This document shows positions 25,924 to 35,902 of a stretch of DNA of 43,577 bases, piece by piece. Source of the DNA: a virus; the IMG/VR virus record IMGVR_UViG_3300045988_012481, positions 1 through 43,577 of that record; one strand, written 5' to 3'. A program made the position numbers and the translations under genes. Within the stretch, counting starts at the first letter, position 1, and each line of letters starts with the position of its first letter. The notes beneath the pieces are model-generated. The model saw only the letters and a program-made list of their open reading frames with translations, was not told the DNA's origin and searched no databases.

Positions 25924-26556
25924 ATGTTTTGCACGAATTGTGGCACGGAATTCGAGGGAAATTTTTGCCCGAACTGCGGAACAAAGGCTGGTGAACAACT
26001 ACCTGCACAAACCGTTGCCCCAAAGGAAACGCACGAGTATTACGATAAAGAGGGCGATTTAATCGACCTCTCCACGATCTACGGCGTTTACAAGGACAGA
26101 ACCGGCATGTCTGCATTCTTCCGCAAATGCACCGATTACGATTCTGTCACTATCGGTAAAGCGTTAGACTATATCGAGGATAACGTAAAGCCGAAGGAAT
26201 ACGGCATGCTGGATGCAATCCGCATGAAGCGTCAGATTGAAGCACCGATTGAGAAGATCATAAAAGTGCAAGCAGTGAACGACCCTTCGGTTAAATTGCA
26301 AAAGGCGCAGCTTTCCGAACTGAAAAAAGCGAACAAACTACAGCAAAAAGAAATGAACGCACAAGCGCGTTGTCCGCGTTGCGGCTCCACTTCCCTTTCT
26401 GCACACAAGAAGGGATTCGGCATCGGCAAGGCCGTGGTAGGCGCAGCCGTGACCGCGCCGCTGGGGCTGGGATTGATCGGTGCCGTAGCCGGAAACAAGG
26501 GCGCGAAAAAAGTCCGCGTCACTTGTTTGAAATGCGGAAAACAATTTTGGGCATAA
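25924..26556 (+). CDS. Double zinc-ribbon protein with glycine-zipper hydrophobic segment (210 aa)
   Basis: AAGGGAAGGTGA RBS. N-terminal CTNCG...CPNCG. C-terminal CPRCG...CLKCG interrupted by GFGIGKAVVGAAVTAPLGLGLIGAVAG. Confidence 0.7.
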   Translation: MFCTNCGTEFEGNFCPNCGTKAGEQLPAQTVAPKETHEYYDKEGDLIDLSTIYGVYKDRTGMSAFFRKCTDYDSVTIGKALDYIEDNVKPKEYGMLDAIRMKRQIEAPIEKIIKVQAVNDPSVKLQKAQLSELKKANKLQQKEMNAQARCPRCGSTSLSAHKKGFGIGKAVVGAAVTAPLGLGLIGAVAGNKGAKKVRVTCLKCGKQFWA

Positions 26557-26596
26557 AAAACGCCCACCGGCGGCAACCGGCGGACGTTATACGGGG

Positions 26597-26660: not shown

Positions 26661-27839
26661 ATGCCACGTCGAAAAAAAGACCCTCGCGGCTTTGTCCGTG
26701 AGACCGGAACGTATATGGGAAAGCATTACGACCTGAGAGCAAAAACCGAAAAGGAACTCAACGAGAAAATCAGGGCAAAACGCGCAGAGATCGAATCCGG
26801 AAGTAAACTCATTGAAGCCGGTGTTACCGTAAAGGAATGGGGGAAACGCTGGGTAGAAACCTACAAGTCCGGCGTGAAGGAATCCACGCGCAGGCTGATT
26901 GAGGGACGACTTGTGAACTACGTCTATCCTTACATTGGGGATATCCCCGTAAGCAAAGTGCGGCCGCTGAACTGTCAGGAAGCGCTTAACTCTGCGGAAG
27001 GACGTGCGCCGGACACCGTAAAGAAGGTGCAGCAGGCAATCGAGCAGATGTTCCGCGCAGCCAAGCAGAACGGCTTGTGCGTCAATAATCCTGCGGAAGA
27101 TTTGAAAATGCCCCGTACTGGCAAGCAGACGAGCCACAGGAGCATTACAGACCGCGAACGTGTTATTTTACTGGAAACTGCAAAGACGCATACTGCGGGG
27201 CCGTGGGTGCTTACTCTGCTGTATAGTGGCTTGCGTCCGGCGGAAAGCCTTGTGCTGACATACGCCGATATTACAGGCGGTATGATTACTGTTGACAAGG
27301 CGTACGACCGGGACACCCGCGCCGAGAAATACCCCAAGTCAGACGCAGGCGTTCGCAAAATCCCGATCATCCCCCAGCTTGCCGCAGTCCTGCCGAAAGC
27401 CGGTTCGTTCGGTGAATTGGTTTTTCCGCGTAACGGGCACTTGTACGATGATAAGTCCATGCGTGCCATGTGGCAGGGTTTCCGCGCCGCTATGGATGAT
27501 ACCGAACGTGAGTTGATCGCGGCGGGGAAAATCTCACCCATTGCCGAGCAGCTGCCGCCTATCGTTCCCTACGATCTGCGCCACACGTTCTGCACAGATT
27601 TAGAGCGCGCGGGCGTACCGCTCAACGTCGCAAGCAAACTCATGGGACACGCATCTATCGAGATTACCGCCAAGATTTACACGCATACCGGCGAGGATAT
27701 GATCGAGCGTGCAGGTGAGCAATTAGCCGCCTTGTTCAGTCCCACATTTAGTCCCATTAACGAAGTGCAAAAAACGCCTATGGCTGACATTATGCGAGAG
27801 CTGCAAGAACTTCGTGCAGCAGTGCTCAAAGCCGTATAA
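26661..27839 (+). CDS. int: Tyrosine recombinase (phage integrase)
   Basis: 392 aa, AGGAGG RBS. C-terminal catalytic pattern ...YDLRHTFCTDLERAGVPLNVASKLMGHASIEITAKIYTH. Confidence 0.95.
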   Translation: MPRRKKDPRGFVRETGTYMGKHYDLRAKTEKELNEKIRAKRAEIESGSKLIEAGVTVKEWGKRWVETYKSGVKESTRRLIEGRLVNYVYPYIGDIPVSKVRPLNCQEALNSAEGRAPDTVKKVQQAIEQMFRAAKQNGLCVNNPAEDLKMPRTGKQTSHRSITDRERVILLETAKTHTAGPWVLTLLYSGLRPAESLVLTYADITGGMITVDKAYDRDTRAEKYPKSDAGVRKIPIIPQLAAVLPKAGSFGELVFPRNGHLYDDKSMRAMWQGFRAAMDDTERELIAAGKISPIAEQLPPIVPYDLRHTFCTDLERAGVPLNVASKLMGHASIEITAKIYTHTGEDMIERAGEQLAALFSPTFSPINEVQKTPMADIMRELQELRAAVLKAV

Positions 27840-27895: not shown

Positions 27896-27950
27896 TGGAG
27901 CTGCTAACCAGATTTGAACTGGTGACCTCATCCTTACCAAGGACGAGGTG
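27896..27950 (-). other. attP core: 3' ~53 nt of a tRNA-Thr(GGU) gene (partial tRNA, not a functional gene)
   Basis: Minus strand reads CGTCC-TTGGTAA-GGATG (anticodon arm, GGT), AGGTC, ACCAG-TTCAAAT-CTGGT (T arm), TAGCAGC-T-CCA. No matching 5' acceptor strand or D arm lies upstream. Confidence 0.8.
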
Positions 27951-28071
27951 AAATTTCGAAACCCCACAGTATGTCTGAACTTTTGACACTTCAAAAATTT
28001 TAGTCCCATGTTTAGTCCCACTTGACCTATACATTGTACCACAGATAGCGTGGGACTTCAACACCGCAATG

Positions 28072-28095
28072 AAGGGAGGGCATTTGCCCTCCCTT
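28072..28095 (-). terminator. Hairpin terminating the accessory cassette
   Basis: AAGGGAGGGC / GCCCTCCCTT 10-bp stem immediately after the stop of 28099..28800. The U-tract is weak on the minus strand. Confidence 0.5.
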
Positions 28096-28098
28096 TAT

Positions 28099-28800
28099 TC
28101 AATGCTTCACAACATACCGGTAGTATGCCGCTTCCTTATTTTTCACTGCGTCCTTGTCTTCGAGCCAGAACGCACAAGCAGCGTCAACATAGTAATCAAT
28201 GTTGCGGATGCCGTGTTTCTCGTTGACCTTGCCAAAGTCGGAGTATACAGCGTTCATTGCCACCCAGAATTCTACCGGGTCGTAATTCAAGTTGTGCTGC
28301 TGCATTACCTGCTTGCACTGTTCAAACGTCCAGTGCGGGCCGGTCGTGCCATCAGCGTTCTGCATGTTGTGCAGCCATTCGTCCGCCATGTCCTTAGTCA
28401 TACGCCCGGTGTGCGTGCTGGACGCATAGCCCATAGTGCGCTCAGAACCGTGCGTCTTGTCGCCTACATAAGAAGTATCCCCCATGTAAGCATCATCGTC
28501 ACGAAAGCCAATAGGGCGCATCTCGTCATCGTAATCGGGGTACTCGTCATACTCCGGATATTCCATGCTGCTTTTCGGCGCAAAGCGTCCGTCAGAATAA
28601 CGGCGATAATTCCGCATCTCCGGTTCGCCGCCGTGAATACGCTCATCATAGTAACCGTAAGGCTCAATATGATTGTACCGATACCGCACGCCGTAATGCT
28701 GGCGATCTTCGGGATACGTCTTGCGGATTCTCCATTCCTCCGGCGAAGCATTCTCTCGGCGGGTGTGCTGCATCAACAGCATTCGGGTTCCTCGTTTCAT
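28099..28800 (-). CDS. Cassette protein 7: Tyr/Asp/Glu/Arg/Pro-rich N-half plus conserved helical C-domain (233 aa)
   Basis: AGGGGG RBS. N-half YPEDRQHYGVRYRYNHIEPYGYYDE...EYPEYDEYPDYDDE. C-half MTKDMADEWLHNMQNADGTTGPHWTFEQCKQVM...FWVAMNAVYSDF. Confidence 0.7.
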   Translation of the reverse strand: MKRGTRMLLMQHTRRENASPEEWRIRKTYPEDRQHYGVRYRYNHIEPYGYYDERIHGGEPEMRNYRRYSDGRFAPKSSMEYPEYDEYPDYDDEMRPIGFRDDDAYMGDTSYVGDKTHGSERTMGYASSTHTGRMTKDMADEWLHNMQNADGTTGPHWTFEQCKQVMQQHNLNYDPVEFWVAMNAVYSDFGKVNEKHGIRNIDYYVDAACAFWLEDKDAVKNKEAAYYRYVVKH

Positions 28801-28812
28801 GATGATACCCCC

Positions 28813-29199
28813 TTACACCGTCGGCGCTGTGCCGTTAATAGACCGCAGCGTGTCAGAATGAGAGCAGCAGGAATTACCGAGCATTCGGAAACTGCCGCCG
28901 CTGGACGAAGTGACAACGCGACACAGGTATTTGTGGCGGGTGTCCAGATTAAACACTGTCGCCTGTGCGCCGTTGCATTTCAGCAGCGGATACGTTACCG
29001 TTCCGTCGCCGATTGTGATTACTACCGGTGCGCCGATGATCGTTGTGCTCGGAATGTTCTGAGCGATTACGATTCCGTATACGCAGCCGTTCTGGTAATC
29101 TCCCGCCGGAATGTTCACCGTCAGCACGCCGCTTGCGTAAGTCACGCCCTGTGAGATACGCAGGTTCGGACACAGTTTTTGTACAGGCTTGCAAGCCAT
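28813..29199 (-). CDS. Cassette protein 6: beta-rich Cys-containing protein (128 aa)
   Basis: AGGAGGG RBS. MACKPVQKLCPN...GVLTVNIPAGDY...VVITIGDGTVTYPLLKCNG...YLCRVVTSSSGGSFRMLGNSCCSH. Confidence 0.7.
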   Translation of the reverse strand: MACKPVQKLCPNLRISQGVTYASGVLTVNIPAGDYQNGCVYGIVIAQNIPSTTIIGAPVVITIGDGTVTYPLLKCNGAQATVFNLDTRHKYLCRVVTSSSGGSFRMLGNSCCSHSDTLRSINGTAPTV

Positions 29200-29255
29200 A
29201 ACTATTCCCTCCTATCAAAGGCAGGGGGATTGCTCCCCCTCCTGAATATCGTATC

Positions 29256-30068
29256 TCAGCAGCCGCAGGTGTTGCAGCCACAGCCGGAAAACTGGTAAGG
29301 TGCCGGAACCGGGAACGCCGGAACGGGAGCCGGGCGCAGAGCGTTTACCAGATAATTGTTCTGTGCTTCCTGAGATGCGGCAAACTTCAAAGTCTGGTTC
29401 TCCGTCTGGAGCGCCGCAATCTTCTCTGCCTGACGTGCAGTTTCCATCTGGTCAATCCGCGCAATGATACGGTCGGTATCGTTGTGGGTGGACTGGATAA
29501 TGTCGCGTGCGTTGGTAGCGGCATTGTAGTTGGTATCGCAGAAACCACGCTCCACCTGTCGCTGAGTATCGCAGCAGCAATTTGCCATCTGCGTACCCAG
29601 AGCAGTAAGGCCAGCAGTTACGCCGTTAAAGCCAGTGTTCATGTTCTGGTTTACGCCGTTGATAAGCTGTGCGTTCTGGTAGCCGAGCTGACAAATTGCG
29701 TTGTCTACACCGTGGAAGCCGTTAGAAACCGCGCTGCCGAGCGTGTTGAAGCCGGTAAGCATTCCGTTGTTCATACTGTAAAAGCCGTTGCACAATCCGT
29801 CCTGAATGCCGAGAACGGAACGGGACAGGTTGTTGAAGTTGAACTCACTGCACAGATCGGAGCGAGTAACCGCGCCCTGATACCCTGCGCCGTTCGCACC
29901 GTTGCCGCCGTTGTTGCCCCAGCCCCAGCCGTTGCCGCCGAAAATCAGTGCAATAATCAGAAATGCGAAAATCCACGAGCCATCGCCGCCCCACATACCG
30001 GAGCCGTTGTTGCTACCGTTGCTGTCCTGACCCAGTGCATAGCCCAGAGCCATCGAATCGTCACTCAT
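29256..30068 (-). CDS. Cassette protein 5: Gly/Asn/Trp-rich single-TM protein with coiled coil and Cys-rich C-terminus (270 aa)
   Basis: AAGGAG RBS before MSDDSM. GMWGGDGSWIFAFLIIALIFGGNGWGWGNNGG. Repeated NGF/TGF motifs, CCC, coiled coil AEKIAALQTENQTL, and ending SGCGCNTCGC. Confidence 0.75.
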   Translation of the reverse strand: MSDDSMALGYALGQDSNGSNNGSGMWGGDGSWIFAFLIIALIFGGNGWGWGNNGGNGANGAGYQGAVTRSDLCSEFNFNNLSRSVLGIQDGLCNGFYSMNNGMLTGFNTLGSAVSNGFHGVDNAICQLGYQNAQLINGVNQNMNTGFNGVTAGLTALGTQMANCCCDTQRQVERGFCDTNYNAATNARDIIQSTHNDTDRIIARIDQMETARQAEKIAALQTENQTLKFAASQEAQNNYLVNALRPAPVPAFPVPAPYQFSGCGCNTCGC

Positions 30069-30208
30069 AGTGTAATTCTCCTTTTCAGTTATATTTGATC
30101 GGAACCGTACGCTTTCCGAACATGACAAATTCACGTCGGATTTTCATCAAGATTCCGTAACTGAAAAGGGAACCGTAAAAAATCGTCTGTTTTTTTACAG
30201 TTTCGTAT

Positions 30209-30436
30209 TTACTTGATGTTCATGCCGAACTGCTGTGCAAACTGATCGAGGTCGATTCCTCGTTCCTTTGCAATGTTCATTGCCATCTGCCGCAGCGCGT
30301 CTGGGCTTTTGCCCTGCATGGATTTCATTAGGGTGCTCACCATAGGATTATTGCCAGTCATTTGGTTCAGCATCATCATAGGATTTCCGCCGTTCCTCAT
30401 AAGCTGCAACACCTGCATCATCGGATTATTTACCAT
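30209..30436 (-). CDS. Cassette protein 4: Met-rich small protein (75 aa)
   Basis: GGGAGGTG RBS. MVNNPMMQVLQLMRNGGNPMMMLNQMTGNNPMVSTLMKSMQGKSP... Confidence 0.6.
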   Translation of the reverse strand: MVNNPMMQVLQLMRNGGNPMMMLNQMTGNNPMVSTLMKSMQGKSPDALRQMAMNIAKERGIDLDQFAQQFGMNIK

Positions 30437-30824
30437 CGTTTGCACCTCCCAGTTGTTCACATAACTTGTTAAACCGTCGGATAAGCTCGTTGAATTCCGT
30501 TCTCGGAACATAATCTGACAAATCTATTTCCGCAGGTTTATTCGTTTCCGGCTCCTGTGCTCTGCGATACATCACAAAGTCGGCACAGCCGGTTTGCAAA
30601 TTAAGCTGTTTAGTGTAAATCGCGCCGTGTGCCGTGTCCGGCATGATAGTAAGCGCACCGGAAAAGTCCGTCTGTACCGCACGCGCTTCCTCCACGCTTG
30701 CCACAGGTCGTACAATATGCTGTGGAGATTGCACCTGCTGTTGCATTGGTGTCTGCATTGGCTGTTGCGGGTACTGCTGTTGATACTGCGGCGTGTAGCC
30801 AGTGTAACCATAAGGATATGCCAT
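30426..30824 (-). CDS. Cassette protein 3: Gln/Pro/Tyr-rich N-terminus plus small conserved domain (132 aa)
   Basis: MAYPYGYTGYTPQYQQQYPQQPMQTPMQQQVQSPQ..., then VASVEEARAVQTDFSGALTIMPDTAHGAIYTKQLNLQTG. Confidence 0.7.
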   Translation of the reverse strand: MAYPYGYTGYTPQYQQQYPQQPMQTPMQQQVQSPQHIVRPVASVEEARAVQTDFSGALTIMPDTAHGAIYTKQLNLQTGCADFVMYRRAQEPETNKPAEIDLSDYVPRTEFNELIRRFNKLCEQLGGANDGK

Positions 30825-30825
30825 T

Positions 30826-30996
30826 TTAACCCAGCACCTCCGTAACGTGTTCGCTGATGGATTTACTTACCGCCTCTTTGTAGGATATATACTCCTCTAA
30901 GCAATCTGTATTGCCTGCGTTGCGGTAAACTGCTACAATGCGACGAGCGCACTCAGGGTCATACCCCATGCGTTCAAGTCTCTGTTCGTAACTCAT
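30826..30996 (-). CDS. Cassette protein 2: small protein (56 aa, MSYEQRLERMGYDPECARRIVAVYRNAGNTDCLEEYISYKEAVSKSISEHVTEVLG)
   Basis: AAGGAAGTGA RBS. Its stop lies 1 nt before the next ATG. Under 60 aa, so absent from the track. Confidence 0.5.
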   Translation of the reverse strand: MSYEQRLERMGYDPECARRIVAVYRNAGNTDCLEEYISYKEAVSKSISEHVTEVLG

Positions 30997-31006
30997 GCGA
31001 TCACTT

Positions 31007-31073
31007 CCTTATACTTTCAGTATAAGGTCTGCCGGGCGTGAAAACCTGTCACAAATCTGTCAACTTGCTGTCA
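31007..31073 (-). promoter_or_regulatory. Three helically phased TGACAG repeats plus an RBS-sequestering hairpin
   Basis: Plus-strand ctgtca at 31046-51, 31057-62 and 31068-73 (exact 11-bp period). Inverted repeat CCTTATAC/GTATAAGG (31007-14 / 31020-27) includes the AAGG of the downstream RBS. Confidence 0.55.
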
Positions 31074-31271
31074 CAGCACGCGCAGCATTTTGCATTTGAT
31101 GCTGTTCAACCGACGATGCACCGTGCTTTCGCTCATGTGCAGCGTCATGCAAATCTGAGTAATAGAGCGCGCCGATGTTCGCAGGTCAAACACGGCGCGC
31201 TCTTCTGGTGTAAAATTGCACTCACGCCGGAAGTATTCCACCTCCGGCCTTGTAAATTCCGTTAATTTCAT
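31071..31271 (-). CDS. Cassette protein 1: small sigma-70 region-4 / LuxR-type HTH regulator (66 aa)
   Basis: GAGGGGA RBS. MKLTEFTRPEVEYFRRECNFTPEERAVFDLRTSARSITQICMTLHMSESTVHRRLNSIKCKM. Confidence 0.65.
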   Translation of the reverse strand: MKLTEFTRPEVEYFRRECNFTPEERAVFDLRTSARSITQICMTLHMSESTVHRRLNSIKCKMLRVL

Positions 31272-31318
31272 GCGGTATCCCCTCGTTATGGTGTCACCGC
31301 ATATCTTTCCCCTTGTAT

Positions 31319-31357
31319 AAAAAAATCGGGTGCGACACACTTACGCGCTTCGCACCC
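31319..31357 (-). terminator. Strong intrinsic terminator after the endolysin / before the cassette
   Basis: Minus strand reads GGGTGCGA-14 nt-TCGCACCC followed by GATTTTTTT. Confidence 0.85.
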
Positions 31358-31458
31358 TATAAAAACACACCGTCCCGTGCCCTCTACGTCAATACCCTAT
31401 GTAGGTTCATAAGGCTTCGAGGAGCGCAGGAACAATGCGTTTTTTCAATCCTGATAGT

Positions 31459-31486
31459 ATTATACCTCTTTTATGTCCGTCCGCAA
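31459..31486 (-). promoter_or_regulatory. Candidate promoter upstream of that terminator
   Basis: Minus strand TTGCGG (31486-81), 16-nt spacer, TATAAT (31464-59); starts right after the endolysin stop. Confidence 0.4.
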
Positions 31487-31487
31487 C

Positions 31488-32225
31488 TTAGCCGTAAAGG
31501 TGTGCACGGTCGTTGATAACCAGCAGGCGCAGCAGGTCGGTCGTCAGTGCCAGTTTGCCCTGATCGTCGCCTTGCAAAAAACCCTTGTTCACCAGCTTCT
31601 GCACGGTGTCTTTCGCCCACGCCGGGCATTCGGCAACGCTGTTGTATACTTTCTTTGCGCTTTCCGCTTTGCTGATCTCCTGCTTTGCGATTGCGCGGGT
31701 CTGTGCTTCCGTCATATCTTCAACCTCTTTCTCTGTCAGCATGGTTTTGAATTTCTGCCACAACTGTGGATTGCGTACCCACGGTTCGGGACAATTTTTC
31801 CTCGTCACATCATAGTGACGGCACACGCGCGATACCGGAATATGGTACTTTGCCATCAGCTCCCGTGTCAGCTTTGCTGCACGCTTCATGGTCTCTTCCG
31901 GGATAACGTACACGCCATTACGGATGACGCTGCACATTTCAATTCCAATAGAATTAGCGTTCCGGCAGTCGTTGTAGTAACTGCCGCCGCGCTCCCTGCC
32001 GCAATGCCATGCCGTGTCGCTGTCCTTTACGCTCTGCACAACGCCGTTCGGGTCTACAAAGTAGTGTGCACTGGCACGCAGTCCGCTTTCTCTTGCAAAA
32101 AAGTCTGCATTGTTCTGTGCCGTATCGCCGTTGTTGGACGTAAAGTGTAAGCAAATCCAGTTGATCGGGAACGAACGTCCCTTCTGATAGTTGCTCGGGT
32201 TGCAGCCTTTAAAAGTGATTTTCAA
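31488..32225 (-). CDS. Endolysin: N-acetylmuramoyl-L-alanine amidase (Amidase_2/PGRP type) with C-terminal wall-binding-like module; TTG start
   Basis: GAGGAG lies 8 nt upstream of the TTG at 32225. ...CLHFTSNNG...ASAHYFVDPNG...TAWHCG...NSIGIEMC. The C-terminal ~60 aa (AWAKDTVQKLVNKGFLQGDDQGKLAL) is SLH-like. Confidence 0.85.
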   Translation of the reverse strand: MKITFKGCNPSNYQKGRSFPINWICLHFTSNNGDTAQNNADFFARESGLRASAHYFVDPNGVVQSVKDSDTAWHCGRERGGSYYNDCRNANSIGIEMCSVIRNGVYVIPEETMKRAAKLTRELMAKYHIPVSRVCRHYDVTRKNCPEPWVRNPQLWQKFKTMLTEKEVEDMTEAQTRAIAKQEISKAESAKKVYNSVAECPAWAKDTVQKLVNKGFLQGDDQGKLALTTDLLRLLVINDRAHLYG

Positions 32226-32230
32226 TCCAA

Positions 32231-32554
32231 TCACTCCTCGTAAATAATCTCGATACCGTAGGCTTTTGCTGCCTCGTGTTCCAGTTTGCAGCCGCGTGCG
32301 TTCTCCCACCCTTTGCAGAAGTACGCAGCGTGGCACAGGCTCATGTTTTCGAGTGACTTTGCAAGGAAACACAGCGGGATTTGCACTACACCGCGCTCCG
32401 CCATGCTCTCTTTGCTGTACCACTCGTCCGTAAACAGGGTGTTGATAATCTCAAAGCCGCGTTCTGTCAGTGCTTTGATAGCACGTTCACGCGTTGCAAC
32501 AATTTCTTCATCCGTCTTGCCGGCCATCGGCTGAGATAACATAGCTTTCTTCAC
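32231..32554 (-). CDS. DUF4406 / nucleoside 2-deoxyribosyltransferase-like protein, copy 2 (107 aa), inside the lysis cassette
   Basis: MKKAMLSQPMAGKTDEEIVATRERAI...LAKSLENMSLCHAAYFCKGWENARGCKLEHEAAKAYGI. Paralog of 12435..12752. Confidence 0.6.
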   Translation of the reverse strand: MKKAMLSQPMAGKTDEEIVATRERAIKALTERGFEIINTLFTDEWYSKESMAERGVVQIPLCFLAKSLENMSLCHAAYFCKGWENARGCKLEHEAAKAYGIEIIYEE

Positions 32555-32555
32555 T

Positions 32556-32825
32556 TTATTTATCCTCCTTTTTCGGTTTCACATAAGTCAGCGCCGCCGC
32601 GCTGTCCGTCACGCCCGCCGTCGTCGGGTCGATGAACACCGCCAGCACCGCAAGGCACATGGTGCAAAGCTGCACCGGATTAGACAGCACCGAAACAATG
32701 CCGTCCCACACAGCCGCCCAACTCGTAAACGTCTGCGGGTCAACACCAATTGCCGTAATCGCCACGGACACCACGCCAACCCAAAACCACGGATTCTTCA
32801 TTCGTACAGGGATATTTACCTTCAT
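32556..32825 (-). CDS. Holin (phi LC3-type family as I recall it)
   Basis: MKVNIPVRMKNPWFWVGVVSVAITAIG...LAVLAVFIDPTTAGVTDSAAALTYVKP: two TM segments and the DPTTxGxxDS...Y motif. Confidence 0.75.
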   Translation of the reverse strand: MKVNIPVRMKNPWFWVGVVSVAITAIGVDPQTFTSWAAVWDGIVSVLSNPVQLCTMCLAVLAVFIDPTTAGVTDSAAALTYVKPKKEDK

Positions 32826-32829
32826 ACTC

Positions 32830-33156
32830 TCACCTCGCAATATGGTCTATAGCAATTCCTTCTAAGAACTGCTCGTATTCCTTCGTTGTCTTTTCAATAG
32901 CCGCAAGTCCTGCCTCTACCTCTCCGTTGCAGTGACCGCGCTTTAATGCCATTGCTACGCCAACGGTAAGCTGACAGTTTGCGTTAATCATTGCAAGCTG
33001 TAAGCGTCCCTCTTTGGCTCGTTGTTCCGCCCTCCGGTTTACCCGCTCCGATTCTTCCTTTGCTCTCTTATCACGCTTGCCGGACTGCGCCGCCATAGCA
33101 GCGCAGATAATTCCGGCAGCACCTGTGATAATGGTGCAGATAACTTCCGTCGGCAT
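32830..33156 (-). CDS. N-terminal-TM protein (holin-associated / XhlA-like?), 108 aa
   Basis: TEVICTIITGAAGIICAAMAAQ TM segment followed by a charged helical region. Located in the lysis cassette. Confidence 0.45.
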   Translation of the reverse strand: MPTEVICTIITGAAGIICAAMAAQSGKRDKRAKEESERVNRRAEQRAKEGRLQLAMINANCQLTVGVAMALKRGHCNGEVEAGLAAIEKTTKEYEQFLEGIAIDHIAR

Positions 33157-34204: not shown

Positions 34205-35902
34205 CTACGCCTCGCACAGGAGACGCGCGGAGACGTTCGAGTACGAATCCGAAGAGGCGCCGTCCGCATAGAAGCACAACAGACCTGCATACGAGCCATT
34301 GCTCCAATCGCCACCAACATACAGCACGCGCCAGTCAGACGAGGAATAAACGTAGTCCGGGACGTAGGTTGTTCCCGAGCCACCAGACGTTTTCGGAATC
34401 AGTAAACCATTGTCGGTAACAGTCAAATCCTTAATCCAACCAGAGCCGGAAAGCGTGCCAATATTGGTGTAGCCGCTCGAGGTATTGTCCGCGTACTCAC
34501 TTGGGTCAGTACAGTAATACGCCGTTGTACCATTGGCGTTAAAGCCGTCAATAAACTGGTATACATTGCCCCACAGGTTTTCGATCCAACGGTACTGCAC
34601 TGCGGTTTTACCGTCTGTGCCGCTCGCGCGTCCCGTGTGATAGGTCATGCTGTCTGTGCCGCCAGAATTGATTGAAGAGGAATTATTAGTGCATCCTTGT
34701 CCAATCTTACTCTGACAGTTCCAATCCGCAAATTCGACGATATACAAAAAGATAATCGCACAATACGTTGCGAAATCGTACAAATGGAACTTTTGTCCAA
34801 TGCTTTTAGCTTTGTTTCTTGCCGTATCGCGAGTTATAGAGACAACAGGCTCTCCGACGCTGATGCTGTACCCTCCACGGGTCATGTGATACTTACCGAT
34901 ATATTTATTTGAACCAGGATGCTTTGTAAATCCACTTTTCGGCTTGTCCGAAACGTAGAAATACTGCTTTGTGCCGTTACGTTTCGCCGCAATATAGAAC
35001 TCCGGAATAAACACCATGGTAAAGTTATTAGAACGTGAGAACCCGCTGTCACCTTTCCATGCTGTCACAGCGCCTGCATTGTTCAGATTGCACTCTTTCA
35101 TGCCGCTCCATGGCATAAAGCTGTCAAACAAGCTGCTTCCAGAGCCAGTTCCGACAGCTGGAATTGGCTCAGTCGTCACCGACCGCGTAACCAATCCGTA
35201 AGGGTCGGTGCTCGGAGTTAAGCGCGTCAATGCGGTGCTGCTGTTGCTCGTATCCCACATCACACCGAACACGTTAGCATAACTCAGCGTCAGCGACTTA
35301 CTCTGACCGCTGGCGGTAATGCTTACCGTGCCCTCTGCTGTCTGATCACCCTTGATAGCCTTAATTGTCCAAGTACCCGCCTTACCGACGGTAAACACAG
35401 CCGTACCATTGCTTGTCTTGGTCAATACCGTACTGCCGAGCGTAGCCGTTACCGTTGAACCACTATCTACGGTTACGGTAATCGTACTCTGGAATTTCTC
35501 AAGCGTTACTGCAAGCGCCGTGTAATACGCCTTGGTCGTCACCTCGGCGGTGTAGGTCACGCCGTCCAGCACGCACGACAGCGTGTAGGTGGTATTGATA
35601 CCGAGTACGCTTACAGTTGCCGTCTTGCTGCTGTCCACTGTGCCGGTGTAGGTTTCACCGCCGCCCTTGAGCGTCCATGCCTGACCGACAAAATCAGCCG
35701 CAAACGTGATGGTGATGATTGAACCACCGCCAGAACTCGGAGCATTTACAGCGCCAAGTACATTGTCTTCTGTAAAACCTGCATACTGCCCTTTCTTGCC
35801 CTTGATTTTATCTTGCTTGTTATCCCATGTTCCCGACTTTTCAATTACTTTACCGACCGCAGAATCAATCTGTGCGCCGGTATGAGAGGAATTATAAGCC
35901 AT
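34205..35902 (-). CDS. Tail fibre / receptor-binding protein (565 aa)
   Basis: AAGGAGTGA RBS. N-terminal MAYNSSHTGAQIDSAVGKV is typical of fibre proteins, followed by Thr/Val-rich beta repeats. Last large structural gene. Confidence 0.7.
   Translation of the reverse strand: MAYNSSHTGAQIDSAVGKVIEKSGTWDNKQDKIKGKKGQYAGFTEDNVLGAVNAPSSGGGSIITITFAADFVGQAWTLKGGGETYTGTVDSSKTATVSVLGINTTYTLSCVLDGVTYTAEVTTKAYYTALAVTLEKFQSTITVTVDSGSTVTATLGSTVLTKTSNGTAVFTVGKAGTWTIKAIKGDQTAEGTVSITASGQSKSLTLSYANVFGVMWDTSNSSTALTRLTPSTDPYGLVTRSVTTEPIPAVGTGSGSSLFDSFMPWSGMKECNLNNAGAVTAWKGDSGFSRSNNFTMVFIPEFYIAAKRNGTKQYFYVSDKPKSGFTKHPGSNKYIGKYHMTRGGYSISVGEPVVSITRDTARNKAKSIGQKFHLYDFATYCAIIFLYIVEFADWNCQSKIGQGCTNNSSSINSGGTDSMTYHTGRASGTDGKTAVQYRWIENLWGNVYQFIDGFNANGTTAYYCTDPSEYADNTSSGYTNIGTLSGSGWIKDLTVTDNGLLIPKTSGGSGTTYVPDYVYSSSDWRVLYVGGDWSNGSYAGLLCFYADGASSDSYSNVSARLLCEA

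Follow-up and report, generated by a model that had tools for sequence, protein, structure and literature searches.

The window (the whole stretch of 43,577 nt that was analyzed) contains a cassette of seven minus-strand genes, g1 to g7, located between the endolysin terminator (31319-31357, minus strand) and a hairpin behind the last gene (28072-28095, minus strand). Genes of a holin and an amidase endolysin lie upstream of the cassette. Its hairpin end adjoins a tRNA-type attP (a partial tRNA, the 3' part, at approximately 27905-28031) and the integrase gene, and a repressor is encoded beyond it as well. All seven open reading frames are present where the preliminary description had placed them, and the internal start codons chosen there for g1, g4 and g5 are backed by the N-termini of homologues. 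The protein motifs and compositions quoted in it are also correct (g4 has 19% Met, g5 and g6 contain 11 and 7 Cys, respectively, and g7 is rich in Tyr, Asp, Arg and Glu). The G+C content of the cassette is not distinct from that of the neighbouring DNA.

Both bounding hairpins fold as had been claimed. With -21.7 kcal/mol, z -4.6 and U7 behind it, the one at 31319-31357, which closes the lysis and late unit, is a canonical intrinsic terminator; the one at 28072-28095, the right boundary of the cassette (-20.8 kcal/mol, z -3.8), has a weak U-tract (UUCAUUG), and neither was picked up by the generic scan tool. Canonical terminators are found directly 3' of g7 in many distant loci. The terminator at 31319-31357 also marks the point of recombination on the left side of the cassette: in relatives with a different leader, the common sequence consists of only the 57 nt 3' of the T-run.

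Among the smaller proteins, g2 (30826-30996, 56 aa) is a helical, lineage-restricted member of the cassette, having homologues in just 6 ORFs of the 87 distant loci and no match in family searches. In the g3 protein (30426-30824, 132 aa), an N-terminus rich in Tyr, Gln and Pro precedes a conserved domain of some 55 aa, and the C-terminal part is a coiled-coil helix. Its family comprises 75 ORFs in the same 87 loci, in every case just upstream of g4/g5; no match was found in Pfam or the PDB, and distant members match PHROG 21718, of unknown function. The first 11 nt of g4 (30209-30436, 75 aa) are shared with the end of g3. This gene encodes a Met/Asn/Gln-rich helical protein without matches in family searches, whose homologues immediately precede g5 in 59 ORFs of distant loci, including 130-kb phage contigs.

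For g6 (28813-29199, 128 aa), the AF2 model (pLDDT 76.6, pTM 0.68) is an eight-stranded beta-sandwich that resembles tail-fibre tip domains. A Foldseek search of the model against BFVD retrieved stand-alone phage homologues and C-terminal domains of tail fibres (TM about 0.5, E from 3e-4 to 5e-3), as well as a crAss-like protein annotated as containing DUF7841. Against the PDB there was no match at E<=1e-3, the best one being a baseplate/tail-fibre chain of Pa193 (E 0.013). The relatives of g6 (353 representatives at 50% identity) are nearly all stand-alone; their N-terminal Cys3 and Cys10 are nearly invariant, and a Cys pair is located at the C-terminus. The last protein, g7 (28099-28800, 233 aa), has a disordered, Arg/Tyr/Asp/Glu/Gly-rich N-terminal half and a C-terminal helical domain that belongs to Pfam DUF7841 (PF25223; E 3.3e-30, 105 bits with the cut-off of 25.2), and it closes the cassette in 34 ORFs of distant loci.

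The core protein, g5 (29256-30068, 270 aa), matches PHROG 16490 (E 1.8e-40) and 4651 clusters, and it alone among the seven has a hydrophobic anchor. An acidic tail is followed by this Trp/Gly-flanked anchor (approximately residues 32-48), a Gly/Asn linker and about 165 helical residues, among which the Cys residues C93 and CCC164-166 are invariant and C126 nearly so. Next come the conserved motif ASQxAQNxYL, a stretch rich in Pro and Tyr and, at the C-terminus, the cluster GCGC...CGC. In the family, the N-tail has a median length of 29 aa and is acidic (K+R 0.30, D+E 3.98), and positive charge is higher C-terminal to the anchor. The number of helical repeats varies in the alignment of homologues, and the AF2 model, though of low confidence, consists of long helices. 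A natural deletion-fusion (P0103) joins residues 1-126 of g5 to DUF7841, and identity between g5 proteins of unrelated phages is 42-45%. Only 11-13 residues of the anchor form a strongly hydrophobic core, and homologues of crAss-like and archaeal-virus origin have N-tails of 53-76 aa, which makes the topology of g5, and even its membrane insertion, uncertain.

The cassette had been described as uncharacterised, and no characterised match was indeed found for its proteins: Pfam, NCBIfam, PADLOC, the PDB and the literature yielded nothing beyond one DUF and PHROGs of unknown function. Still, g5 and the C-terminal half of g7 fall into already catalogued families, PHROG 16490 and DUF7841, respectively.

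The leader and the g1 region suggest how the cassette may be controlled. A candidate sigma-A-type promoter (TTGCGG, 16 nt, TATAAT; 31459-31486, minus strand), read from the sequence and scoring under the threshold of the scan tool, overlaps the endolysin stop codon and would start a structured leader (z -6.3 for the whole fold). The long leader hairpin (31364-31444, minus strand) has a match to Rfam RF03075 (DUF3800-VIII RNA) that is marginal, being sub-threshold (34.6 bits, gathering score 40.2), and the motif was not detected in the five relatives where it was looked for. The g1 product (31071-31271, 66 aa) is a stand-alone HTH protein resembling sigma-70 region 4 and LuxR-GerE domains; its Pfam matches (Sigma70_r4_2, GerE, AraC HTH) are weak and all below the cut-off, while PHROG 36, 'transcriptional regulator', is matched with E 3.7e-5. 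Homologues of g1 lie upstream of g3 in most distant loci, and g1 is presumed to be the switch of the cassette. Three TGACA direct repeats with 11-bp phasing (31047-31073, minus strand), overlapping the g1 stop codon, are the single match of this kind in the window (0.01 expected) and are candidate g1 binding sites; other phased repeats occur 3' of g1 in loci L177 (TACAA x4) and L214 (ACACT x4). Just upstream of the g2 ribosome-binding site, the palindrome CCTTATACTGAAAGTATAAGG (31007-31027, minus strand), also read from the sequence, includes a -10-like TATACT; similar TATA(A/C)TGAAA elements lie 3' of the post-g1 terminator in L150, L162 and L169.

An intrinsic terminator follows g1 in 29 of the 42 distant loci, compared to 37 of the 840 random windows, which implies a g1-gated, delayed operon. 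That the cassette is a separate, compact module, bounded by hairpins and equipped with a small HTH protein of its own, is supported, but since in most relatives a terminator splits g1 from the rest, the seven genes probably do not form one simple transcription unit. The spacer between g4 and g5 (30069-30208, minus strand; -46.7 kcal/mol, z -5.1) folds into an A/U hairpin and a long stem pairing with the g5 Shine-Dalgarno sequence; it is not a general element, as the spacer length is highly variable in relatives. Predicted hairpins sequester the ribosome-binding sites of both g1 and g5. Such tight gating is typical for products that are harmful when made early.

All seven genes are found together in 121 of 149 close IMG/VR loci, and prophages of 80 bacterial species retain the order g1-(g2)-g3-g4-g5-g6-g7 with 30-50% identity; order and sequences co-diverge with the phages and are not patchy. 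The co-linear block was found again in hundreds of independent contigs and is thus beyond chance; far from being confined to this genome, the genes co-occur widely, always inside phage or prophage DNA. In ten sampled distant loci, an endolysin gene lies upstream in nine and an integrase gene downstream in six. Anaerotruncus colihominis and many further genomes likewise have the cassette at the prophage end, the position noted earlier, with the endolysin gene on one side and a tRNA or the integrase gene on the other. The cassette is directly 3' of the endolysin gene also in Bajarodcaudo virus 5, Vescimonas and A. colihominis, some 1 kb behind the genes of the holin and a carboxypeptidase in the crAss-like cr116_1, and at the end of the tail genes in 130-kb phage contigs. 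In the crAss-like phages as in the 130-kb contigs, the core is thus located where the late genes end.

By homology, the cassette core recurs in thousands of phages of gut anaerobes, from Clostridia to crAss-like Bacteroides phages. In particular, g5 (PHROG 16490, >4,600 clusters) is present in 130-kb, crAss-like, Bacteroides and C. perfringens phages and in viruses assigned to Methanomassiliicoccales; a plaque-isolated Bacteroides phage carries the core, and crAss001 was not among the matches within crAss-like phages. Among deposited phage genomes, 34 of 50,697 carry the cassette, nearly all from gut samples, towards which the searched databases are biased. No integrase was seen in the stretches read of the crAss-like phages and 130-kb contigs, so the cassette probably serves the lytic cycle. 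Phages whose hosts do not sporulate (Bacteroides, Negativicutes, wall-less Bacilli) have homologues as well, as do viruses assigned to archaea, the host envelopes being monoderm, diderm, wall-less and possibly archaeal. These hosts and carriers exclude a spore-coat module and weaken a pure lysogenic-conversion reading. The analogy to spore coat and exosporium proteins, drawn in the preliminary description, has failed also in direct comparison, where neither sequences nor folds of the Cot, Exs, Ena or BclA families were matched. The overall interpretation given in that description is supported in part.

Our best guess, a tentative one, is that the cassette encodes a late envelope or egress complex. 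The g1 protein would be made from transcripts that run through to the end of the lysis genes, or from the weak leader promoter. It would then bind the phased repeats just 3' of its own gene and open expression of g2/g3-g7, whether through activation of a -10-only promoter or by letting transcription pass the terminator that most relatives have behind g1. The products would assemble around g5, held in the cytoplasmic membrane by its short hydrophobic segment and carrying a long coiled-coil stalk that is knotted by Cys and ends in a Pro/Tyr-rich tip with the Cys cluster. Met-rich g4 may be a holdase or insertion partner for the hydrophobic segment, while soluble partners, namely g3 (prion-like N-terminus, small domain, coiled coil), g6 (the beta-sandwich with its N-terminal Cys pair) and g7 (disordered region and DUF7841), would join the stalk in the cytoplasm or once holin holes open. 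The complex would work on the host envelope just as the lytic cycle closes, not in the lysogen, either assisting egress or lysis or remodelling membranes. In its layout, with an N-terminal anchor, a coiled coil, Cys and a Pro-rich end, g5 resembles lysis accessories such as i-spanins and XhlA. Moreover, the g6 homologues in BFVD are labelled Myo-, Sipho-, Podoviridae and crAss-like, so the module is independent of virion type, which favours a target at the cell level. On the other hand, no detected homology ties any cassette protein to lysis, the hosts have very different envelopes, the window already encodes a holin and an endolysin, g5 is far more conserved than holins and spanins usually are, its anchor is short with doubtful topology, and the g6 model looks like a virion fibre tip. 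Spanin and antiholin genes, unlike the cassette with its terminator and dedicated regulator, are normally co-transcribed with lysis genes, which also speaks against such a role.

The main rival, though itself doubtful, is an accessory virion fibre, in which g5 would be a trimeric coiled-coil shaft plugged by its hydrophobic N-terminal segment into the capsid or neck (similar to reovirus sigma1 and adenovirus fibre), g6 the distal knob, and g3, g4 and g7 assembly chaperones or adaptors, with an optional adhesion function for gut phages, e.g. to mucus or the cell surface. The tail-fibre likeness of the g6 model, including its best PDB match, the long helices and variable repeat number of g5, its hydrophobic core, short for a transmembrane helix, and the depositors' annotation of crAss-like homologues as 'spike' or 'outer capsid protein/viral fiber' agree with it, as do the location at the late-operon end, the presence in virulent-type phages, the restriction to gut samples and the accessory status within crAss-like phages. 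However, genes encoded after the lysis genes, behind terminators and with a dedicated regulator, are unusual for structural proteins, and carriers of every morphotype share only the HK97-fold capsid as an attachment site. The Trp/Gly-flanked segment of g5 and Met-rich g4 look membrane-related, disordered Tyr/Arg/Asp- and Gln/Pro-rich partners are atypical as fibre chaperones, and the g6 fold match is moderate.

A classic moron, expressed from the prophage under g1 control for lysogenic conversion or superinfection exclusion, with g5 in the host membrane blocking the entry of competing phages or altering the cell surface, is unlikely. The extreme prophage end beside attP/tRNA in the window, A. 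colihominis and L218, the integrase just beyond in six of the ten sampled loci, the flanking hairpins, the cassette's own HTH and candidate promoter, the recombination breakpoint at the left boundary, and the single-pass membrane nature typical of exclusion proteins fit it. But the core is present in crAss-like phages, in the plaque-isolated Bacteroides phage and, at the late-gene end, in 130-kb contigs, it co-diverges with phages over 80 species, its G+C is like that of its neighbours, PADLOC gave no match, and five to seven genes, four of them for soluble proteins without an export signal, far exceed what known exclusion systems need. Highly improbable, finally, is a cross-linkable matrix without spores, which takes the coat analogy of the preliminary description at its word: very late, abundant Cys/Tyr/Gln/Gly-rich proteins would encase progeny or cell remnants in a redox-hardened coat or occlusion, helping phages of strict anaerobes to survive transit outside the gut. 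Compositions, invariant Cys clusters of g5 and g6, seemingly delayed, gated expression and the near restriction to viruses of gut anaerobes across host phyla suit this idea, but it is built purely on composition, the databases lean towards gut samples, comparisons of sequence and fold matched no coat, exosporium or polyhedrin-type protein, and to our knowledge no such structure has been described for phages.

With a late envelope or egress complex as the preferred reading, the cassette may provisionally be regarded as a 'post-late' operon, self-contained and with a switch of its own, that many phages of strict gut anaerobes carry where their late genes end on the 3' side.

All seven minus-strand open reading frames of the cassette were found where the preliminary description had placed them, namely g1 (31071-31271, a 66-aa HTH protein), g2 (30826-30996, 56 aa), g3 (30426-30824, 132 aa), g4 (30209-30436, a 75-aa Met-rich protein), g5 (29256-30068, the 270-aa core protein), g6 (28813-29199, 128 aa) and g7 (28099-28800, 233 aa). 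The internal start codons chosen there for g1, g4 and g5 are backed by the N-termini of homologues, and the motifs and amino acid compositions it quoted are accurate. Its account of the surroundings holds as well: upstream of the cassette lie genes for a tail protein (34205-35902, minus strand), a holin (32556-32840) and an amidase endolysin ending at 31488, and beyond it the 3' part of a tRNA (about 27905-28031), an integrase (26661-27839) and a CI-type repressor. As a whole, the window is the genome of a temperate siphophage in circularly permuted form. Of the two hairpins said to bound the cassette, the one at 31357-31319 (-21.7 kcal/mol, z -4.6) has U7 directly behind it and qualifies as a canonical terminator, while the one at 28095-28072, though stable (-20.8 kcal/mol, z -3.8), has a weak U-tract; in many distant loci, that is, diverged cassettes, g7 is directly followed by canonical terminators.

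Two features of the neighbourhood are recorded here. The position between holin and endolysin, odd for nucleotide metabolism, is occupied by a nucleoside deoxyribosyltransferase-like gene (32231-32554, minus strand, 107 aa; PHROG 355, nucleoside 2-deoxyribosyltransferase, E 4e-22). Two overlapping terminator-like hairpins (26548-26588, minus strand), the stronger with 13 pairs, are located between the integrase gene and a zinc-ribbon gene (25924-26556, plus strand); neither gene is encoded on their strand.

Relatives are numerous in IMG/VR, where 172 were found with g5 as bait and 66 with g7, the two sets sharing contigs. The seven genes do co-occur as a block outside this genome, standing together in 121 of the 149 fetched loci. 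The g5 family comprises 4,651 clusters at 90% identity, none of them named and none with a Pfam domain. In a scan of one genome per species, g5 homologues were identified in 80 loci, with hosts from Oscillospiraceae, Acutalibacteraceae, Ruminococcus, Lachnospiraceae, Christensenellales, Erysipelotrichaceae, "Bacilli" and Anaeroplasmatales MAGs, and Negativicutes; monoderm Clostridia predominate, and the cultured strains represented are Anaerotruncus colihominis DSM 17241 and Enterocloster hominis. For metagenomic contigs, host and lifestyle were called from record titles and from the lack of an integrase in the stretches read.

Iterated HMM searches of the distant loci detected 91 ORFs for g5, 75 for g3, 59 for g4, 46 for g6, at most 50 for g1, 34 for g7 and six for g2, in the invariable order g1-(g2)-g3-g4-g5-g6-g7. 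Where g4 is undetected, the gap between g3 and g5 is about 250-300 nt, leaving room for a diverged gene of the g4 size. The upstream neighbour is an endolysin in nine of ten sampled distant loci, its type varying among Amidase_2, Amidase_3, GH25, CHAP, NlpC/P60 and C39-like, and six of ten have a serine or tyrosine integrase next to the cassette on the downstream side. In A. colihominis and in locus L218 g7 borders directly on a tRNA gene, and a prophage on the Vescimonas fastidiosa megaplasmid has the same cassette layout. In E. hominis and a Dorea MAG, RAGATH-21 and GP20-b RNA motifs, scoring above the Rfam gathering score, are found 1-3 kb downstream of the cassette (L211, 10281-10437; L220, 11309-11395 and 11889-11953), hence more phage DNA follows there, not an attachment site.

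The core of the cassette is also carried by phages other than the temperate phages of Clostridia. In two contigs of 130-138 kb, which have genes for NrdD, dUTPase and flotillin and no integrase in the stretches read, g3-g4-g5 close the tail genes, with a terminator ahead. In the circular 58-kb Bajarodcaudo virus 5 the order is holin, peptidase, HTH, g3, g4, g5, g6 and then divergent early genes, and in the C. perfringens phage CPD1 cassette genes are found downstream of the lysis module. The crAss-like g5 homologues have the same architecture, with the anchor, the CCC motif, an ASQxAQ-type motif, PxPxPAY and the C-terminal Cys cluster; in the crAss-like phage cr116_1 the g5 gene is about 1 kb past the holin and carboxypeptidase genes, behind a small HTH gene. 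The plaque-isolated Bacteroides phage C3_41T2LP has a g5 homologue and, nearby, a weakly DUF7841-like ORF (E 9.5e-5). Further homologues come from viruses assigned by their depositors to Methanomassiliicoccales, among them vir215, in whose record the g5 homologue is filed under PHROG 16490. Among 50,697 deposited phage genomes just 34 contain g5 matches, nearly all of them from gut samples. According to hhalign, the proteins encoded behind g5 in cr116_1 and the 130-kb phage have no homology to the g6 family, nor has the 168-aa protein of cr116_1 to the g3 family, and such proteins appear to be positional analogues only of g6, g7 and g3.

Small ORFs resembling HExxH metallopeptidases recur beside the cassette in A. 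colihominis, cr116_1 and C3_41T2LP (L160, 6145-6474; L230, 4162-4509 and 6742-7137; L231, 7431-7895); they show a weak SprT-like match, are called "PolyVal metallopeptidase" in deposited annotation, and have no counterpart in the window. The tail protein of the window (565 aa) belongs to PHROG 5302, which also labels a tail protein beside a reverse transcriptase in vir215 (L232, 1052-2755), and an RT-18 RNA motif (57 bits) occurs at 1223-1297 of L021, a close relative of the window. PHROG 5302 and RT-18 together give hints of diversity-generating retroelements in this phage group.

The core protein g5 matches PHROG 16490 (function unknown; E 1.8e-40). Members of its family begin with an acidic tail (median 29 aa, K+R 0.30, D+E 3.98), followed by a hydrophobic core of 11-13 strongly hydrophobic residues with Trp/Gly flanks inside an uncharged stretch of about 22 residues, and then by a Gly/Asn linker and a nearly invariant TR. 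The helical part of about 165 residues, with repeats varying in number across the family, contains invariant C93 and CCC164-166 and nearly invariant C126, and the C-terminal part consists of a conserved ASQxAQNxYL, a Pro/Tyr-rich stretch and a terminal Cys/Gly cluster. The AF2 model comprises two long helices at low confidence (pLDDT 49). The charge balance favours a predicted N-out/C-in topology, a call weakened by the crAss-like and archaeal-virus homologues, whose N-tails are 53-76 aa long. No consistent Pfam family emerged among 24 members of the g5 family, and profile searches against PDB sequences with g5, g6 and g3 returned coiled-coil noise only. A natural in-frame deletion protein, P0103 (233 aa, from an 81.5-kb contig), has residues 1-126 of a g5 homologue fused to the DUF7841 domain of g7, thus keeping the anchor and first helix of g5; the remainder of g5, the whole of g6 and the disordered g7 half are missing.

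The model of g6 is an eight-stranded beta-sandwich (pLDDT 76.6, pTM 0.68). Foldseek found no PDB match to it at E<=1e-3, for which reason an Ena, BclA or C1q identity was dropped; the best PDB hit was a chain of the Pa193 baseplate/tail fibre (E 0.013, TM 0.42). In BFVD, the model matched proteins that stand alone in Myo-, Sipho-, Podo- and crAss-like viruses, the C-terminal domains of many tail fibres (TM 0.45-0.57), and a 294-aa crAss-like protein annotated as containing DUF7841. A profile search revealed no sequence similarity of g6 to tail-fibre tips in PDB. Its family (353 representatives at 50% identity, with Cys3 and Cys10 nearly invariant) consists almost entirely of stand-alone proteins, the longer "fusion" proteins being chimeras or truncations, and the gene lies after the lysis genes, outside the tail module; g6 thus does not appear to be the C-terminus of a tail-module fibre protein. 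No consistent Pfam family was found among 44 family members.

Residues 126-227 of g7 form the Pfam domain DUF7841 (PF25223; E 3.3e-30, 105.1 bits at a gathering cut-off of 25.2), which is present in all relatives found and is preceded by a disordered N-half rich in Arg, Tyr, Asp, Glu and Gly. A search for informative fusions of DUF7841 gave none, only 16 proteins with DUF7841 alone. In g3 a conserved domain of about 55 aa stands between an N-terminus rich in Tyr, Gln, Pro and Met and a coiled-coil tail, with no consistent Pfam family among 50 family members, and g4 is helical, rich in Met, Asn and Gln, and encoded directly upstream of g5 wherever detected. No hydrophobic segment was found in g2, g3, g4, g6 and g7, and inspection showed no signal peptide or lipobox in them. 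In a subset of loci (L217, 6682-7071; L175, L206, L207, L219, L228) an extra conserved protein of about 130-160 aa is encoded between g1 and g3; with the motifs GDCxVRA...MPSxNxVWGxYL...GHVVxV..G.YYDxW it looks like a Cys/His peptidase, and has no Pfam match.

The matches of g1 to HTH families are weak (Sigma70_r4_2, 18.7 bits at a cut-off of 25.7; GerE, 16.7 bits at a cut-off of 23.5), and it is also matched by PHROG 36, "transcriptional regulator" (E 3.7e-5). It is likely a stand-alone HTH protein of the sigma region-4/LuxR type, the match to HTH in general being firmer than that to any subfamily. A canonical terminator within 130 nt past the g1 stop was observed in 29 of 42 distant loci, as against 37 of 840 random windows (terminator and repeat statistics were obtained with simple custom scripts), hence in most relatives the upstream unit ends with g1, and g2/g3-g7 are a unit of their own. 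The window differs from most relatives in having the terminator upstream of g1. All that relatives with a different leader share is the 57 nt past the T-run of this terminator, which makes it the left recombination boundary.

The spacer between g1 and g2 in the window contains TGACA three times with a phase of 11 bp (one match, with 0.01 expected), and also a palindrome that includes a -10-like TATACT. In L177 and L214, g1 is followed by other phased repeats; exact phased 5-mers are present there in just two of 42 distant loci (p 0.007), so that this evidence is suggestive only. The g1 leader is strongly structured (z -6.3) and pairs with the g1 start region. The 140-nt spacer between g4 and g5 (30069-30208, minus strand; -46.7 kcal/mol, z -5.1), a stem of which pairs with the g5 Shine-Dalgarno sequence, may act as a translational gate; as a general element it was rejected, since the spacer length in relatives varies from -4 to about 300 nt. 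The cassette promoter is a weak candidate only, read from the sequence, the scan tool having found none, and the geometry "TTGAYA, 21-23 nt, TATAMT", observed in just three of 42 distant loci, was discarded as a general one. The leader hairpin between the endolysin stop and the terminator (31364-31444, minus strand) is matched over its full length by RF03075, the DUF3800-VIII RNA, at 34.6 bits with a gathering score of 40.2; the motif was not detected in five related loci, and the hit is taken as marginal, not as a riboswitch. As a small, presumably nucleic-acid-binding protein encoded just upstream of a blocking terminator or structured RNA, with hairpins sequestering ribosome-binding sites, g1 resembles lambda Q with tR' and Mu com-mom, but Q and Com are unrelated to it, its HTH being of the sigma region-4/LuxR type. 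By this arrangement g1 would gate a delayed, "post-late" operon as an activator or antiterminator.

Scans of the seven proteins against Pfam, NCBIfam, PADLOC and PHROG gave only DUF7841 for g7, PHROG 16490 for g5 and the weak HTH of g1. As PADLOC models matched g1 alone (weakly, through its HTH) and nothing in g2-g7, a known anti-phage defence system was rejected. The literature on DUF7841, the crAss spanin/"spike protein", archaeal gut viruses and C. perfringens virion proteomics yielded nothing on the cassette proteins.

The evidence singles out no one function for the cassette. Our tentative preference is for a late, g1-gated complex that would be assembled on membrane-anchored g5 and do its work at the envelope as the lytic cycle ends. 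This reading is based on the position beside the lysis genes, the confinement to phages, the presence in non-temperate phages, the independence of morphotype and the heavy gating, and is weakened by the strong conservation, by the varied envelopes of the hosts and by the likeness of the g6 fold to a fibre tip. In lambda-type lysis canonical endolysins reach the cell wall via holin holes, so an extracytoplasmic role is compatible with partners that have no export signal. The i-spanin Rz, XhlA and BhlA resemble g5 in the predicted N-proximal membrane anchor, long coiled coil, conserved Cys and Pro-rich end, as well as in presumed late expression and in location by the holin and endolysin genes, but no sequence or profile similarity links them to g5. 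Moreover, a spanin pair needs a lipoprotein partner, whereas g6 and g7 have neither lipobox nor signal peptide; this, together with the mostly monoderm hosts, led us to reject a canonical two-component spanin (Rz/Rz1). The g5 family is also much more conserved than spanins, and the cassette stands behind a terminator, with its own regulator and three or four further soluble partners. Somewhat more doubtful than the envelope complex is an optional virion fibre with g5 as the shaft and g6 as the knob. Its model would be reovirus sigma1, the adenovirus fibre, T4 fibritin and the P22/Sf6 needle, in which a short N-terminal anchor, a variable coiled-coil shaft and a small beta-sandwich knob are combined as in the cassette, the predicted g6 fold resembling tail-fibre tips. 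In the cassette, however, shaft and knob would be separate polypeptides encoded outside the tail and head modules, and its proteins have no significant PDB match by sequence or fold.

An exclusion or conversion cassette, toward which the preliminary description leaned in calling the place of the block the classic moron position, is rather unlikely. The position beside attP and the flanking hairpins agree with that proposal: lambda bor/lom and the staphylococcal conversion genes between lysin and attP occupy the same place, and the cassette is likewise terminator-flanked, with its own regulator and a modular recombination boundary. The sporadic, temperate-only distribution and the atypical composition did not hold, and a classical moron was rejected on these grounds, as the cassette core is found in crAss-like, Bacteroides and 130-kb phages, the multi-gene order is kept over 80 host species, and the G+C content is ordinary (0.48-0.55, against about 0.51 in the neighbouring genes). 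A cross-linkable matrix is least probable among the specific readings. The cassette proteins share Tyr-, Cys-, Gln- and Gly-rich compositions with CotC/U, CotY/ExsY, Ena/DUF3992 and the BclA C-terminal domain, and g1 is a stand-alone HTH of the GerE size, but the suggested spore coat or exosporium analogy failed: no Pfam coat family was hit by g3-g7 or by 44 members of the g6 family, no coat structure was among the Foldseek PDB hits, and homologues occur in Bacteroides, Negativicutes and wall-less Bacilli contexts, that is, in phages of non-sporulating hosts. The remaining probability goes to some other function.

The claim that the module is uncharacterised stands, with no characterised homologue for g3, g4, g5, g6 and g7. 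We know of no system with this set of components, and rate the cassette as categorically new at the system level; functionally it may yet prove an atypical case of a class already known, for example fibres, lysis accessories or exclusion systems. We consider it improbable, if a little less so than the matrix, that it represents new late machinery common to phages of different host phyla in the anaerobic gut, either as a redox-sensitive coat of Cys-knotted coiled coils and knobs, protective or adhesive, around the progeny, or as a universal device for egress at the membrane level, whatever the envelope; the coat would presumably be the phage counterpart of very-late occlusion proteins.

The scale of the phenomenon is considerable: the g5 family alone counts more than 4,600 clusters at 90% identity, and prophages from no fewer than 80 gut species carry it. 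So do crAss-like phages, which rank with the most abundant viruses of the human gut. The existence of cultured lysogens (Anaerotruncus colihominis DSM 17241, Enterocloster hominis, Vescimonas fastidiosa) makes the question directly testable, and plaque-forming carriers of the core are available in C. perfringens CPD1 and Bacteroides phage C3_41T2LP. A role in egress or at the envelope would extend the textbook holin-endolysin scheme by one step in Gram-positive and other gut hosts; an optional virion fibre would bear on the adhesion and persistence of gut phages; and, if active in lysogens, the cassette would provide commensal Clostridia with a conversion function of very wide occurrence.
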